From Phycisphaerae bacterium (GTDB taxonomy: Bacteria > Planctomycetota > Phycisphaerae > UBA1845 > Fen-1342), in the NCBI GenBank assembly GCA_963675745.2, contig CAXXWX010000016.1, positions 223,261 to 287,260 on the forward strand: 64,000 bases of DNA, written 5' to 3'. Position numbers: made by a program. Below are positions 9,001 through 27,000 of this stretch, piece after piece; the stretch's first letter is position 1; each line of letters starts with the position of its first letter.

Positions 9001-12000
9001 TCCACCGCGGCGCAGAGAATACGGGCGTGACCGTCGAGATCGGTGTCAGTAGTCACCACCGAGTCGTCACCTTCATCGATACAAGGCGAGCCCGGCTGGA
9101 GCCGCAGCCCGTCGAAGAGCGGATCCTCGTCGATGTTGGTTGCATCCGGCCAGCCGCCCGCGATATCGCTGTACGTCACCGTAACCGTGCCGCTGCCGGC
9201 GTTGATCACTTCGTCGGTGCCGCCGTCCCAGATGATGCAGTTGGTGAAGGCGGCATCGCTGTCATCCAGGTTGAACAGCGCATCACCAATATTCGCATAG
9301 TTGTTCTTGAAAGTGCAGTTGACGACCGTCGCATTGCTCTGGGCACCTCCCGCAAGAGCGGCACCGTAGCTCAGAGCAGGGTAGAGAGTCTCAGCCCGAT
9401 TCCCCGTGAAGGCGCAGTTGGTGAAGGTCGGCTGGGTGAATTCGAGGTTGCTGACCGCCCCGCCGTAACACTCGGTGATGTTGAACAGCGTGTCCACCCG
9501 ATTGTACGAGAAAAGGCACCGGTCGAAGCTGGGGGCGCTGTAGCCTCCGTTGGCGACCCCGGCCCCGTAGAACTTGCAGTAATTGCCATGGAGGGTGCAG
9601 CCGATCAGCACCGCGCTGCAATCCCAGTTTCTCATGCCGCCCCCGTAGTTCTCGGCCGTGTTATCCTCTAAGGTGCAGCCGACCAACGTAGGCCGATACG
9701 CGCTCGACATCGAGTAGTTGTACATTCCCCCGCCAGAAATGGTAGCAGTGTTGTCCGCTATAAGGCAGTCGGTGAAGGTAGCATTGGTGTGGCTGTTGAA
9801 GACTCCCCCGCCGTACTCAGCCGAGTTGTCGGTGAAGATGCAGGAGACGATGGTGGGGCTACCGCCTCCGACGTACATTCCGCCCCCAGAAAGGGAGCCG
9901 ACCTCCGCCCGCCCCCCGGTAACCGTAAACCCGTCAAGCACGGTGGCAGCGGCGCAACTCGTAGCGGTAACCACCTGGTAGCTGTCCTGATCATCCCGGG
10001 GCGCTCCGGCCTTTTCCCCGGTGCGCAGGTCTCCACTGAGGATGGTCACGCAGGCTTCGAGATCGCGCATGTCGGGCCAAGGCGCTCCCGGACCCGCGTA
10101 GCCGCCGCGCAGGGCAACGCCGCTGATCAGATCGAAGCTCGCATTGGGATCCCCACGCGTTACATTCCCTGCTTCGTCCCTGTCCGGATGATACGTGCCG
10201 CCCGCCACGCGAATTTCGTCGCCGGCGGCGGCGCGCCCCAAGGCATCCTGGAGAAACCGGAAGGAGGAAACCCAACTCGTGCCGGTGCCCCCGAGCACGC
10301 TCTCGTCGTCCACGTACCAGACGGTCTGCCCCGCGGCCGTCAATGCGGTGCAGAGAGTGCAGATCAGTCCCACGCCCGCGCATTCATGCCATTTGATGTG
10401 GTTCATCATTAGTAGACCTCCCGCGACCGGAGCCGATCAGGGGCCTGAGGTGACAGCCCACGTCACCCACGCGCGTTGCAGAACACGCGCCCCCTGAACT
10501 CAACTCCTAAGATCTCTAGAAGCGACAACCCCATACCCCACGCGGAAGAGCTCCGCGTACCGGACCTCATTGTAGCAATCTGCGCCCTTCATGTCACGCC
10601 TTATTCTGTCGCCCCAGCCCCTGTGCACCGCTCACCAGACGTAGCAGAGCGGTGCTGGCCGCAGATTTCCCAGATTGCGCAGATTCGCTGCCAGGTATCG
10701 AACGTCTTCCTCCTATCTGCGGAATCTGCACAATCCGCGGACAAACTCCCGGAGCATCCTGTTCGACCCGGCGTGAGTGAGATTGCCCGCTCTGCCGGTA
10801 TAATCCCAAGGTGATATGCCCGCGGGGCCAGCGCTTTGCCAGCAGGGGTCTAGGGCTGCTCACAGGCAGCGCGGCGACCGGACATTCGACGGACACCCAT
10901 GCGAAACTTCTTAACCAGGTACAAACCGGCAGCCTCGACCCGTACGCACCTGCTACTAGCAGCGCTGATGTGGAGCACGGTGGGCACGGTATTGCTGGCG
11001 TTCGGGCTGCTTTGGGTACTACGCTCGGAGCTGCCCTACGGCTGGGGATTGGTCATGTTGGCGGTCGCAGTCGGATGGACCAAGGCGCATTTCGTGCTTG
11101 CGCGCACGGCGCGGCGCGTGGCGGCGCGGATCACAACCCGGGGCGACGGCTACTGTCTGGGCGGATTCCTCTCGCCGCTCTCGTGGGTGTTCGTGCTGGC
11201 GATGATCCTGATGGGGCGGCTGCTGCGTAGCGGGTGGTTGCCGCGCACGCTGGTGGGTTGGCTCTACGTAGCTGTGGGTAGCGCGCTGCTGCTGGCGTCC
11301 CGGCTGCTGTGGCGGGCGTGGCGGCGGCAGCACCCGGCACGCTGACGGCGCGCGTCGCCGCCGGAGAAAGCGACGGCCACCCCAGCAAGGGACGGCCGTC
11401 ACCATGAGAGAAACAGTGAACTGAATCCGCGCCGCTTCCTGCTATGCCTCTGACTTGGCGCTTGGAATATCCTCCTGCGGAATCACCATCTTCACCTGGA
11501 CCACGCCGCTGACCGTGGCGGTCTCGATGCCCAGGCCGGAGCGGTGGAAGATCTTGAGCATGCCGCTGTTTTCCGGCAGCACGCTGGCGCGCAGGTGGTA
11601 GATGCCCTGGCTCTTTGCGATCCGCACCAGCTCCTCGTGGAAGTAGGTGCCGAGCCCCTTGCGCTGCCAGTCGTCGCGCACCACGAAGGCGACCTCGGCG
11701 TCCAGCTTGGCGGCGTCGGTCAGGTAGCGCCCAACTCCCACGATCTCCTCGCTCTCGGCGTCACCGACCACGCCCACGAGTGCCATCTCCGTGTCATAGT
11801 CGATGTTGCAGAAGACCTGGAGCTTGTTGTGAGGCATGGACTTAAGTTGCGAATGGTAGCGCAGGTAGACCGTCTGCTCGCTGAAGGAGTAGAACATGCT
11901 CTTGATGAGCGGCTCGTCGTCGGGGCGGATGGGCCTGACCCTGACTTGGGTTCCATCCAGCAGCTTGGCGGTCGATTCGTATTGGGCGGGGTACTGCGCC

Positions 12001-24000: not shown

Positions 24001-27000
24001 CGCGGCCGGACCACCCTTGCCCCGTTCGATCAAACCCAGACTCTCCGAGACGATGATCTCCGCGATGGTGAAGCAGTCGTGCACCTCGGCGAAGTCAATG
24101 TCCTTGGGGTCCTTGCCCGCCATCTTGTAGGCCTGCTCCGCGGAACAGCTCACCGCCTTGAGCGCGGTAAGGTCCTCGCGATCCTTGAGAGCAATGGAAT
24201 CCGTCGCATGACCCGAGCCGATGATCTTCACGCCCGGCTTCTTGTACTTCTTAACCCAGTCGGCCGGGATCACGATCGCCGCGGCCGCCCCGTCGGTGAT
24301 CGGCGAACAATCCAGGATGTTCAGCGGATCAGCCACCTTGACCGAGTCGATCACACCCTCGACCGTGATCTCCATCGGGAACTGGGCCCGCGGGTTCATG
24401 CTGCCGTTGTGATGGTTCTTGACGGCCACGTGGGCGAGCTGCTTACGGGTGGTGCCGTACTTGGCCATGTGGGCGACTGCCAGCATGGCGTACAGCCCGG
24501 GGAAAGTGATACCACTGGTCCCTTCCCACTCCATGTCCGCCGCGGTGGCAAGGGCATAAGTCGCATCCCCCCCGCCGATCTCGGTCATCTTCTCCACCCC
24601 GCCGGCCAGCACCACGTCGTGCACCCCACTGGCCACGTCCCGAAACGCCATCCGCAGCGCCAAGCCTCCGGAGGCACAGGCGGACTCCACCCGCGTCGCG
24701 GGAATCGGAGCCTGCCCCAGGTAATCCGCCAAAACCGAACCCAAATGCTCCTGGGCGGCAAAGAGCCCGGGAGTCATGCTACCTACATACATGGCGTCCA
24801 GCTTGTCCACCCCGGCATCGTCCATGGCGAGCAAGGCGGACTCGACGAAGATGTCGCGGGTCGAGCGATTCCACAGCTCGCCCCACTTCTGCATGCCGAC
24901 GCCGATTACGGCCACTTCTCTCATCTTTCGTATCTCCTACTTCTCCGCCAGGCGGATCTTGCGCCGCAGCTTGGCGTACTCGCCGTACTCGAGGAAGCTA
25001 ATGTTCTCGTCCAGCATCCAACGCGTCTTGGGCGCCAGGTCACGGGCCTTGAGCACCCGCTCCTGCACCGTAAAGATGAAGGCATCACTGCCCGCCCCCG
25101 AGCCGTAGGAGCACATCATGATCTTGTCGCCCGGCTTCGCCACATCCAACACGGCCGTCATCCCGAGCGGCGAGGCGCCTGAGTAGGTGTTGCCCAAAGT
25201 GAGTACCAGACGCCCGACCTCGATCTGCTCAAAGCTGAAGCCGAGCATCTTGGCGACGCGCTTGGGGAACTTGCCGTTGGGCTGGTGGAAGATAGCGTAC
25301 TTGAAATCCTTGGGCTTCATGCCGGATTTCTTGAGGATGCCCTCGACCGCGCCTACCACCGTGCGGAAGTAGGCCGGCTCCCCGGTGAAACGCCCGCCGT
25401 GCGACGGGTAGAACTGGTGCTCGCGCCGCCAGAAATCCGGGGTGTCCGTCATGAAGGAGTAGGTCTCGTCGATGGTGGCGATCATGCGGTCCTCGTCGGC
25501 CCCCATGATGAAGGCCGCCGCACCGGCCGCCGCCGAGTACTCGAGGGCGTCGCCGGGCGCACCCTGCGAGGTATCGCCGCCGATGCCCATCCCGTACTTG
25601 ATAAGCCCCGCCTTGACCAGGCCATAGGCGACGAACATGCCCTCCGAGCCCGCCTTGCAGGCGAACTCGAAGTCCGCGCAATGGCAGTCAGGGGTGGCAC
25701 CGATCGCCTCGGCCACGGTAACGCCGGAGGGCTTCACCGCGTAGGGGTGCGACTCGCTCCCGACGTAGATCGCCCCGATGTCCTTGGGGTCGATCCCCGC
25801 CCGCGCCACGGCGTTGCGGGCCGCCTCCACGGAGAGAGTGATCGTGTCCTCGTCCAGCCCCGGGACTGATTTCTGGATCAGCTCCAGCCCCTTCTTGTAG
25901 CTTGGCGCGTCCGCCCCCCAGACCTTGGCGATCTCCTCAACCTTGATTCGCCGCCGGGGGAGGTGGGCACCATAGCCAATAATCCCAACTGCCATGTAGG
26001 TCCTCCTCGTCTTACCCTAACCGGACCCGAACACCGGGTCCGGCACGAAACGCCTATCGCAACACCTGGCACCTGCGCCGCCGCCTGGGCGACCAGGTTC
26101 TTGAACCCAATAACCAGAAGGTAGAGGTTTAGCGTGAGGTCTGCGACCCGTCAACTGCGCCCCTCCTCCTGATACTGCAAACGCGGATTCCCCCCTGCCG
26201 CGGCGTCAGCCTACCGGCTCGTCGCGTTCTCCGGTTCTGCGAAAGTGCCTCCAGCCCAGGACAACCAGCACCAGGATGCTCCCGGCCTTCCACAGCAGCA
26301 ACCACCAGGGCCTCCACCAGGCACCGGTCTGCACCTCGACGACGTCAGACAGACCGAAGAGAGCGAAGGTCACGGCAATCAGTACGTGCCGGCGGCGGAG
26401 CGAACCTGTCCGCCCGGTTGCTGGTGTCCTGAGTCCGAAATCCGTGCACAGTCTTGACTTCCGAGCCGCGACATTCATGTCGCGCGGGAAACGCCCGGCA
26501 CAAATGCCGGGGCTCGGACGACCGTGCCAAATCCTGCAACCAACTTGCGACTCAGGACACTAGAATCGCGAGGACTGGAGCAGTCCCCGCCCAGAGAGCC
26601 GCCTCGAGATAGTCTGCGCTGGAGAACATAACCGCCCTCAGAACACCGGGCTGGATCGCAATACCGCAAAGCTGGGGTTGGCGCGGTCGCGGTCGCTCAG
26701 CACCGGATCGGTCAGGGGCCAGGTGATCGCAAGCTCCGGGTCGTCGTAGGCGATTCCCGCCTCCGCCTGCGGGTCGTAGTAGTCGCCGCACTTGTACATC
26801 ACGTCAGCCCCCTGTGAGATCACCGCGAAACCGTGGGCAAAACCGACCGGGACGAAAAGCTGCCGATGATTCTCGGCACTCAACTCGCACGCCTCCCATT
26901 GCCCGAAGGTCGGCGACTCTTGGCGCAGATCGACGGCCACGTCCCAGATAGCACCGCGGACGCAGTAGATCAGCTTCGCCTGACCGGGGGAGTCGGCTGT

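Follow-up and report, generated by a model that had tools for sequence, protein, structure and literature searches.

A window of 64,000 nucleotides from contig CAXXWX010000016.1 of a Phycisphaerae bacterium was analyzed here, and it contains a row of eleven genes on the minus strand (Table 1). Searches with Pfam and NCBIfam profiles agreed with the first-pass annotation on the coordinates and families of all eleven. The start codons of the DUF35, hydratase and carboxyltransferase genes lie downstream of those of the longest open reading frames. The DUF35 gene begins with the ATG at 23768, one base past the thiolase stop, which gives the product the same length (131 residues) as its relative in locus L017, and the hydratase gene begins with the ATG at 23180. 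The MK biotinylation site of the carrier protein lies within the stretch EIMKC.

Table 1. Genes of the minus-strand row, from its upstream end, with the profile evidence for each.
Product	Length (aa)	Coordinates	Strand	Evidence
Archaeal-type HMG-CoA synthase (HMGCS)	352	24937-25995	-	TIGR00748, 523 bits (cut-off 353)
Archaeal-type acetoacetyl-CoA thiolase (ACAT)	384	23770-24924	-	NF053570, 531 bits
DUF35 scaffold protein	131	23373-23768	-	zf-ChsH2 and OB_ChsH2_C (Pfam)
Enoyl-CoA hydratase (ECH), LiuC/AtuE (methylglutaconyl-CoA hydratase) type	262	22392-23180	-	NCBIfam families and identity
Biotin carboxylase (BC), gene separate from BCCP	449	20882-22231	-	accC TIGR00514, 650 bits
Acyl-CoA carboxyltransferase (CT), distinct MCC-beta/GcdA-like family	577	19138-20871	-	Carboxyl_trans, 335 bits
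Biotin carboxyl carrier protein (BCCP)	203	18176-18787	-	Biotin_lipoyl domain, residues 121-198
DsrE/YedF-like small protein		17803-18141	-	DsrE, 24.7 bits; YedF, 87.5 bits (below cut-off)
CoA-transferase-GNAT		15630-17507	-	Pfam/NCBIfam domains
ADP-forming acyl-CoA ligase		13344-15503	-	Pfam/NCBIfam domains
CoA-transferase-GNAT (second)		11442-13337	-	Pfam/NCBIfam domains

The order HMGCS-ACAT-DUF35-ECH-BC-CT-BCCP was found in 20 of 80 related loci, several of those without it breaking off at contig ends. These 20 loci are labelled Phycisphaerae/Planctomycetota, Eisenbacteria, Acidobacteriota, Aminicenantes and Deltaproteobacteria. Because the same order recurs so often, the seven-gene core cannot plausibly be put down to chance, and the earlier proposal of a single unit made up of the HMGCS complex, the hydratase and an MCC/GcdA-type carboxylase is supported. 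The biotin carboxylase is retained next to the carboxyltransferase (70 BC and 74 CT clustered loci), and BCCP follows CT in the relatives as well. An acyl-CoA dehydrogenase gene is linked to 7 of the 20 HMGCS loci, and in locus L056 the operon itself includes it, with BCCP on one side and ECH on the other. Neither the present window nor the close Phycisphaerae loci have one beside the operon, an observation that counts against a catabolic reading. We found no account of this operon type in the literature.

None of the 80 related loci showed a match to the DsrE/YedF-like gene, which is outside the conserved operon. The first-pass annotation had wired the operon to the ADP-forming ligase and the two CoA-transferases; a gap of 295 nt separates these genes from it. 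Not one of the 80 loci has this module next to the operon, and five close relatives (G001-G004, G206) lack an ortholog of the ligase, their homologs being only 38-41% identical. The proposed wiring is therefore not upheld: the module is a lineage-specific neighbour and not part of the conserved system, although in the present organism it may supply the pathway or draw from it. Both CoA-transferases bear a C-terminal Pat-like GNAT domain, and the CoA-transferase domain matches the 4-hydroxybutyrate CoA-transferase 9VAG with 505.7 bits.

The synthase matches chain I of PDB entry 6ESQ with 463 bits, and its SESH, FACKAG, FHQPNG and GNTYSG stretches, which hold the E-C-H-N tetrad as defined in PMC12960953, are identical to those of that chain. 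The thiolase, which matches chain A of the same entry with 363 bits, keeps the CxS cysteine (ACASG) as well as the HDCF and GH motifs. Judged by sequence, all catalytic motifs are intact in both enzymes. A second ECH-DUF35-thiolase-HMGCS-like set, also reported earlier, is indeed present on contig C3, but there the HMGCS-like protein is without the catalytic tetrad and the thiolase without its cysteine.

For carboxyltransferases of the MCC beta and GcdA types, the site of action on an enoyl-CoA is its gamma carbon. The nearest solved relatives of the operon carboxyltransferase are GcdA (3GF3, 251 bits) and MCC beta (3U9R, 250.6 bits), with PCC and ACC types behind, and its scores are far under every NCBIfam cut-off. 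An MCC/GcdA-type enzyme is predicted, with a presumed 3-methylcrotonyl-CoA substrate; its identity to the canonical MCC beta of the same-order genome G053 is only 33%, and it scores as well with the glutaconyl-CoA decarboxylase GcdA as with MCC beta, both of which count against a role in leucine catabolism. In a tree of 73 carboxyltransferases, one clade takes all 20 HMGCS-adjacent rows, and a large sister clade comprises stand-alone BC-CT-BCCP clusters with no hydratase or HMGCS nearby. The hydratase scores best with the NCBIfam families PRK07468 and gamma-carboxygeranoyl-CoA hydratase, though under the cut-off of either. The same families come top for the hydratase of canonical CT-ECH-BC-lyase clusters in G053 and a second same-order genome, G104, to which the present protein is 46-48% identical. 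Genes for the housekeeping ACC sit elsewhere (accA and accD on contig C26, accB and accC on C10), so the operon carboxylase is a dedicated extra enzyme; a second BC/BCCP pair on C10 is 50% and 39% identical to that of the operon.

The carboxylase might nevertheless act on crotonyl-CoA/glutaconyl-CoA, acetyl-CoA or propionyl-CoA, in which case its adjacency to HMGCS would reflect co-regulated acetyl-CoA metabolism and no linear HMG-CoA pathway. Such a role would suit the GcdA-like score, the large stand-alone sister clade and the similarity of the adjoining CoA-transferases and ligase to 4-hydroxybutyrate enzymes. We consider it improbable, given the separate housekeeping ACC, the methylglutaconyl/isohexenylglutaconyl type of the hydratase that lies between the two modules and the retention of all seven genes together across phyla. 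Moreover, HMGCS co-occurs with this carboxyltransferase in all 21 other CT-bearing genomes searched (20 operon genomes and G001, where it is located apart from the carboxylase genes), as it does in the present genome. HMGCS was found in none of eleven same-order genomes without this CT.

Potential consumers of HMG-CoA were surveyed in 21 operon-bearing genomes, namely the present assembly (91% complete) and 20 others. HMG-CoA reductase occurs in four of them (G212, G213, G218 and G219), three of which are without IspH. It was not found in the present assembly or in 16 of the 20 others, including the related closed chromosome G002, which agrees with the earlier statements that the reductase is missing and that HMG-CoA is not destined for mevalonate here. 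The MEP pathway attributed to the present genome is borne out by DXR and IspG; IspH, found in 16 of the 20 other genomes, was not found in this assembly. The HMGL-like family, to which HMG-CoA lyase belongs, is absent from the present genome and from 11 further operon genomes. Matches to it were seen in the other nine, and three of these were tested: those in G005 and G213 proved to be PycB/OadA and that in G219 IPMS-like. The remaining weak matches are not lyase-like, so that an HMG-CoA lyase of this family was found in none of the 21 genomes, no search having been aimed at a non-homologous lyase such as one of the CitE/HpcH type. Neither reductase nor lyase is present in 17 of the 21, among them the present assembly and the single-contig chromosome G002. 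Of 30 genomes that have this CT family but no HMGCS beside it, 10 possess a true lyase (NF004283 over cut-off), and in G053 and G104 a lyase lies within the canonical liu-type cluster. The complementary pattern is incomplete, since 16 of 17 Planctomycetota genomes with a stand-alone BC-CT-BCCP cluster are also without lyase.

One could picture HMG-CoA as a hub, where an acetyl-CoA arm (the HMGCS complex) and a leucine arm (carboxylase and hydratase) meet and from which a consumer encoded elsewhere leads to mevalonate in some hosts and, through another enzyme, to another product in others. Haloarchaea and trypanosomatids have a known shunt from leucine to mevalonate, and the four reductase-bearing genomes, with IspH missing from three, would accord with such an outlet. 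Set against the 17 genomes that have neither consumer, and against operon flanks that show no conserved candidate for one, this arrangement seems quite unlikely.

The reading we prefer, and to which we would give an even chance, is that the seven-gene operon is the lyase-free end of leucine/isovalerate catabolism, with the HMGCS/thiolase complex replacing the lyase. Isovaleryl-CoA would arise from isovalerate, or from imported leucine via a 2-oxoacid:ferredoxin oxidoreductase, and would be converted to 3-methylcrotonyl-CoA by an acyl-CoA dehydrogenase encoded elsewhere in the genome. The split BC/CT/BCCP enzyme would then form 3-methylglutaconyl-CoA at the expense of ATP, and the crotonase would turn this into HMG-CoA. 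Because both known consumers are missing, HMG-CoA is probably split by the synthase complex operating in reverse, near equilibrium overall (HMG-CoA + 2 CoA -> 3 acetyl-CoA), and ADP-forming acyl-CoA ligases could derive ATP from the acetyl-CoA. If this is true, one thioester more is kept than by the lyase route. The conserved biotin carboxylase, the linked acyl-CoA dehydrogenase and the absence of lyase favour this direction. The present genome encodes IOR, VOR-type and other 2-oxoacid oxidoreductases, an acyl-CoA dehydrogenase with EtfAB and several ADP-forming ligases. No LeuA-like gene was matched in any of the 21 operon genomes and IlvD is gone from 20, so leucine must be imported. Thiolase condensation has a free energy change of about +25 kJ/mol and the HMGCS reaction one of about -30 kJ/mol; their sum is near zero, and the direction would therefore be set by the acetyl-CoA/CoA ratio. 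To our knowledge, HMGCS is generally held to be physiologically irreversible, which counts against a reversed complex, and we found no report of its net reversal in the literature consulted.

The first-pass annotation had read the operon the opposite way, from three acetyl-CoA through HMG-CoA, 3-methylglutaconyl-CoA and 3-methylcrotonyl-CoA to isovaleryl-CoA, which could serve for iso-branched lipid primers, isovalerate fermentation or leucine formation, with a 2-oxoacid:ferredoxin oxidoreductase carrying out the reductive carboxylation. HMGCS is normally synthetic and its motifs are intact here, the myxobacterial Aib pathway sets a precedent, and a leuB match over cut-off is missing, like LeuA, from all 21 operon genomes. 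The VOR/IOR-type oxidoreductases would be at hand, and the dehydrogenase-EtfAB set is of the bifurcating type and could reduce 3-methylcrotonyl-CoA. Closed chromosome G002 retains IlvC and IlvD without LeuA, which fits a leucine-specific biosynthetic gap that the operon might fill and counts against catabolism. However, in 70 of 74 clustered loci the carboxyltransferase has next to it a complete ATP-grasp biotin carboxylase, which decarboxylation does not require, and this conservation of an ATP-dependent enzyme disfavours the biosynthetic direction; making ATP through it would be thermodynamically hard. With IlvD missing from 20 of the 21 genomes, the leucine gap belongs to a general branched-chain amino acid auxotrophy and is not a specific replacement. 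The operon also has no AibC-like reductase, the route would be a poor electron sink compared with acetate plus ATP, and the CoA-transferase and ligase genes that were to release the acid do not belong to its conserved neighbourhood. We therefore regard biosynthesis as unlikely.

Among known systems, the Pseudomonas-type Liu pathway (liuABCDE; locus L091 of G053 is a local example) shares with the operon a biotin carboxylase, a gamma-carboxylating CT and a LiuC-type hydratase leading to HMG-CoA. The present genome differs in having no HMG-CoA lyase and, in the operon, the HMGCS/thiolase/DUF35 trio instead; BC and BCCP are separate genes and not a fused alpha subunit, the carboxyltransferase stands in a family of its own, and no dehydrogenase lies within the window. 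The alternative isovaleryl-CoA (Aib) pathway of myxobacteria consists of MvaS, LiuC, AibA/B and AibC, and employs a biotin-free CoA-transferase-like decarboxylase and an MDR reductase. Both it and the present operon tie HMG-CoA/3-methylglutaconyl-CoA to 3-methylcrotonyl/isovaleryl-CoA independently of mevalonate. In contrast to the Aib system with its bacterial-type MvaS, the operon has an ATP-dependent biotin carboxylase, no reductase and a synthase that scores only 107 bits with TIGR01835 (cut-off 360). The archaeal channelling complex of Methanothermococcus thermolithotrophicus (6ESQ, 6ET9) is built from the same three proteins, whose genes are adjacent here too, whereas the present host is a bacterium on the MEP route without HMG-CoA reductase, and the trio, set within a carboxylase/hydratase operon, would work in reverse. 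Bacterial loci with co-localised HMGS, ACAT and DUF35 genes, as in the present operon, were surveyed in PMC12960953, which counts as uncharacterised 1,001 of 1,030 such loci without secondary-metabolism neighbours. As described there, the HMGS domain of the Pseudomonas fluorescens PfACAT/HMGS-DUF35 complex is dead and the complex only cleaves acetoacetyl-CoA. The set on contig C3 resembles this degenerate type and, going by that description, is more degenerate still, because its thiolase cysteine is missing as well, whereas the synthase of the seven-gene operon retains the full E-C-H-N tetrad.

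Eleven co-directional genes, identified with Pfam and NCBIfam models, occupy the minus strand from 25995 to 11442, and housekeeping genes unrelated to the operon lie on both flanks. The starts of the DUF35, crotonase (ECH) and carboxyltransferase (CT) genes were refined using the sequence and its relatives. The best relatives of the CT place the host organism in the Phycisphaerae, phylum Planctomycetota. Scanning the region for promoters and terminators returned sites no more numerous than in shuffled sequences, and none at all in the 295-nt gap that separates the seven-gene operon from the downstream CoA-transferase/ligase module.

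Genes of the minus-strand array and the profile matches that identify them
Feature	Gene in array	Coordinates	Strand	Identification
Archaeal-type HMG-CoA synthase (HMGCS)	1		-	TIGR00748, 523 bits (cut-off 353)
Archaeal-type acetoacetyl-CoA thiolase (ACAT)	2		-	NF053570, 531 bits
DUF35 zinc-ribbon/OB protein	3	start 23768	-	zf-ChsH2, 41 bits; OB_ChsH2_C, 72 bits
Crotonase (ECH)	4	start 23180	-	Pfam/NCBIfam
Biotin carboxylase (BC), 449 aa	5		-	accC, 650 bits
Carboxyltransferase (CT)	6	start 20871	-	Pfam/NCBIfam
BCCP, 203 aa	7		-	Pfam/NCBIfam
Small DsrE/YedF-like protein	8		-	Pfam/NCBIfam
CoA-transferase fused to Pat-like GNAT domain		15630-17507	-	Pfam/NCBIfam
ADP-forming acyl-CoA ligase	10		-	Pfam/NCBIfam
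Second CoA-transferase-GNAT fusion		11442-13337	-	Pfam/NCBIfam

By motifs, domains and gene adjacency, the first three genes are predicted to encode an archaeal-type HMGCS/ACAT/DUF35 complex, which would share one CoA site and form HMG-CoA from acetyl-CoA. Compared with the solved M. thermolithotrophicus enzymes, HMGCS and thiolase scored 463 and 363 bits, respectively. The HMGCS stretches SESH, FACKAG, FHQPNG and GNTYSG, which hold the E-C-H-N tetrad, are identical to those of 6ESQ chain I, and the thiolase stretches ACASG (CxS Cys), HDCF (HDxF) and GHP (GHx) align with 6ESQ chain A. The DUF35 gene, with its zinc ribbon and OB fold, directly follows the thiolase gene. Families and catalytic motifs thus bear out the first-pass annotation of these three genes as archaeal-type HMG-CoA synthase, thiolase and DUF35. 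A 2026 study defines the tetrad, shows that it and the thiolase motifs are essential for HMG-CoA formation, and refers to about 1,000 bacterial HMGS-ACAT-DUF35 loci as uncharacterised, the one tested being degenerate (PMC12960953).

Among solved relatives the CT is closest to GcdA (3GF3, 251 bits) and to the beta subunit of methylcrotonyl-CoA carboxylase (MCC; 3U9R, 250.6 bits), while PCC and ACC types are less similar; no NCBIfam cut-off is reached. Both GcdA and MCC beta act on the gamma carbon of an enoyl-CoA, adding or removing a carboxyl group there. The CT shares 33% identity with the canonical MCC beta encoded by G053, a same-order genome with a CT-ECH-BC-HMG-CoA lyase cluster, and a long branch separates the two in the CT tree. 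BC and BCCP are encoded by separate genes flanking the CT gene, and a fused MCC alpha subunit is absent. Since accA and accD are found on contig C26 of the source genome and a second accB/accC pair on C10, the operon carboxylase is not the housekeeping ACC. The hydratase scores best with PRK07468 and gamma-carboxygeranoyl-CoA hydratase, without reaching either cut-off; the same families lead for LiuC/AtuE-type hydratases and for the canonical G053 hydratase. The operon hydratase is 46-48% identical to the hydratases of canonical CT-ECH-BC-HMG-CoA lyase clusters in two same-order genomes. We infer solely from this adjacent putative methylglutaconyl-CoA hydratase (LiuC type) and from HMGCS that the CT substrate is 3-methylcrotonyl-CoA.

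Searches with the CT as a query, retaining one genome per species, yielded 80 loci. The same gene order, HMGCS-ACAT-DUF35-ECH-BC-CT-BCCP, is seen in 20 of them, labelled Phycisphaerae/Planctomycetota, Eisenbacteria, Acidobacteriota, Aminicenantes and Deltaproteobacteria, and several others end at contig edges. Neither the CoA-transferase/ligase module nor the DsrE-like gene accompanies the operon in any of the 80 related loci, and homologs of the ADP-forming ligase in five close operon-bearing genomes are just 38-41% identical. The first-pass annotation placed both CoA-transferases and the ligase in one run with the complex; lack of conservation rules the module out as a component, and together with the 295-nt gap it leaves the seven-gene operon as the system and the three downstream genes as a lineage-specific neighbour.

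The fusions in this neighbour belong to a set of three paralogous 4-hydroxybutyrate-type CoA-transferases with a Pat-like GNAT domain, two in the window and one on contig C5 (L103:8683-10830), directly 3' of a gene for a DASS-type carboxylate transporter. Planctomycetota hold this family in very large numbers: of 8000 scored candidates, each of the best 120 shows the same architecture, at 73-100% identity, and the sources annotate them merely as "GNAT family N-acetyltransferase". These fusions may be CoA-transferases that carry their own acetylation control, or else Pat variants equipped with a new sensor domain. Other arrangements were noticed elsewhere in the source genome. On contig C6 a 1024-aa frame (L105:6939-10013) joins an indolepyruvate oxidoreductase (IOR) beta subunit (265 bits, above cut-off) with a complete ADP-forming acyl-CoA ligase and adjoins IOR alpha; as predicted from its domains, this fusion would directly couple 2-oxoacid oxidation to ATP formation. 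A 760-aa frame on C26 (L109:7717-9999) combines a VOR/POR-type gamma subunit with a GltD-like NAD(P)-binding protein. Finally, on C23 (L104:5531-11054) a 917-aa Pat-type protein (ADP-forming ligase-like plus GNAT) is encoded directly 3' of a 911-aa AMP-binding enzyme, the usual regulatory pairing of an acetyltransferase with an acyl-CoA synthetase.

All 20 HMGCS-adjacent copies fall into a single well-supported clade of a 73-CT tree, in which the Phycisphaerae CTs are nested among those of Eisenbacteria (82-90% identity). Of 201 genomes sampled from the class, only two carry archaeal-type HMGCS. Together, the single clade, the nesting and this sparse occurrence point to horizontal spread of the operon as a whole; two genomes are also too few for a within-class correlation. 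HMGCS was found in the source genome and in all 21 of the further CT-bearing genomes searched, namely G001 and the 20 remaining operon genomes, and in 0/11 same-order relatives that lack this CT. The ATP-grasp BC lies beside CT in 70 of 74 clustered loci. In G001, a Phycisphaerales chromosome (CP070744.1; locus L022), the operon is split, with BC-CT-BCCP at 5.1 Mb and a true HMGCS at 2.70 Mb, 2.4 Mb apart.

Known enzymes that consume HMG-CoA are scarce in the operon genomes. HMGL-like PF00682 had zero matches in the source genome, with 14/14 controls positive; having no member of this family at all, the genome lacks both HMG-CoA lyase and LeuA. The same search of the 21 operon genomes gave no match in 12, weak matches in eight (two that were tested are PycB/OadA) and an isopropylmalate/homocitrate-synthase-like protein in one (G219), so that an HMG-CoA lyase of the HMGL-like family was identified in none of the 21. 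The first-pass annotation had reported no HMG-CoA reductase, and PF00368 indeed has no match in the 91% complete source genome (five controls positive). A reductase is present in 4/21 operon genomes and absent from 16 of the 20 that remain when the source genome is set aside. The latter include G002, a related closed single-contig chromosome carrying the operon, which has neither lyase nor reductase and thus answers the concern that these genes sit in unassembled DNA. HMGL-like genes are present in 10/14 same-order genomes without the operon, and a true lyase exceeds the NCBIfam cut-off in 10 of 30 genomes whose carboxylase is of this family and has no HMGCS beside it (one more is borderline). 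A weak point of this pattern is that 16 of the 17 Planctomycetota genomes whose BC-CT-BCCP cluster stands alone lack the lyase too. Within 10 kb of the clusters of this sister clade (L045-L084) there is neither a hydratase nor HMGCS; its genomes have no HMG-CoA lyase bar one borderline case, and carry a single short, divergent isopropylmalate/homocitrate-synthase-like gene.

The MEP pathway assigned to the genome in the first-pass annotation was recovered in part: DXR and IspG are present and IspH was not found. As 16/20 other operon genomes have IspH, its absence is likely an assembly gap. A natural "isoprenoid alcohol" route to DMAPP, considered because of the missing IspH, was rejected on the same grounds and on the presence of DXR and IspG.

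The second, diverged ECH-DUF35-thiolase-HMGCS set described in that annotation does exist, on contig C3 (L102:8725-12182), but with altered catalytic residues. None of the four tetrad residues is present in the HMGCS-like protein, and in the thiolase-like protein Asp replaces the catalytic Cys, with HD and GH kept. This cluster is a separate system and not a back-up copy of the operon trio. The thiolase-like protein resembles thiolase-fold retro-aldolases, and the set was considered as the missing lyase. No ortholog of the HMGCS-like protein was found in the 32 genomes searched (21 CT-bearing and 11 relatives), so it cannot account for the general lyase-free pattern.

Conservation of BC beside CT, linked acyl-CoA dehydrogenases and the occurrence of the operon where the lyase is absent all point to a catabolic direction. 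An acyl-CoA dehydrogenase is adjacent in 7/20 HMGCS loci and lies inside the operon in one (L056). No isovaleryl-CoA dehydrogenase is encoded in the window, and the Phycisphaerae loci likewise lack a linked dehydrogenase, a weak point of this reading; four acyl-CoA dehydrogenases elsewhere in the source genome are not assignable to isovaleryl-CoA. This genome has the enzymes of an amino acid fermenter, namely IOR, VOR-type and other 2-oxoacid:ferredoxin oxidoreductases, acyl-CoA dehydrogenase with EtfAB and several ADP-forming ligases. As the final step we infer a reversal of the HMGCS complex, in which HMG-CoA would yield three acetyl-CoA by the reverse of the overall reaction. With standard values of approximately +25 kJ/mol for thiolase and -30 kJ/mol for HMGCS, the overall reaction is close to equilibrium. 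Our literature search found no paper describing the seven-gene operon or a reverse HMGCS.

The same reversibility might serve biosynthesis. No LeuA or leuB above cut-off was found in any of the 21 operon genomes. IlvD is missing in 20 of them as well, so the gap is not leucine-specific and these organisms are general branched-chain amino acid auxotrophs that must import leucine; replacement of leucine biosynthesis was therefore rejected as the main reading. Among G000-G004, the source genome and four close relatives, IlvC is high-scoring throughout, LeuA is absent throughout and IlvD is absent from all but G002. Retention of IlvC and IlvD without LeuA in G002 counts against catabolism. Together with the general absence of LeuA and with the VOR/IOR-type enzymes and Etf-linked acyl-CoA dehydrogenase of the source genome, it allows a scheme that we regard as a long shot: the operon as a reversible near-equilibrium bridge that also makes isovaleryl-CoA from acetyl-CoA, BC recovering ATP from decarboxylation. 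Leucine would then arise independently of LeuABCD, by way of 2-oxoisocaproate formed from isovaleryl-CoA in a reductive carboxylation by a 2-oxoacid:ferredoxin oxidoreductase.

Direction and mechanism are predicted from the genes. If the catabolic reading is true, leucine/isovalerate breakdown ends without HMG-CoA lyase in many uncultured bacteria, labelled Planctomycetota, Eisenbacteria, Acidobacteriota, Aminicenantes and delta-type lineages, and a complex known solely as the archaeal entry to the mevalonate pathway would cleave HMG-CoA thiolytically. The saving of one thioester per leucine, roughly one ATP, would matter to energy-limited fermenters, and the textbook view of HMG-CoA synthase as one-way would be overturned. 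Pathway-prediction tools, which now call such organisms unable to degrade leucine or assign them a partial mevalonate pathway, would need correcting.

The operon differs from several known systems that share some of its parts. The mevalonate pathway has HMG-CoA reductase, which was not found in the source genome. The Liu (leucine/isovalerate utilisation) cluster includes the lyase LiuE, which was identified in none of the 21 operon genomes, the source genome among them, and has isovaleryl-CoA dehydrogenase in or beside it, unlike the window. The myxobacterial Aib pathway employs a bacterial MvaS-type HMGCS, the decarboxylase AibA/B and the reductase AibC, whereas the operon has an archaeal-type HMGCS (107 bits with TIGR01835, cut-off 360) and neither a CoA_trans-family pair nor an MDR reductase; the two nearby CoA-transferases belong to the acetyl-CoA hydrolase/transferase family. 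Finally, MCC has a fused BC-BCCP alpha subunit, whereas the operon encodes BC (449 aa) and BCCP (203 aa) apart.
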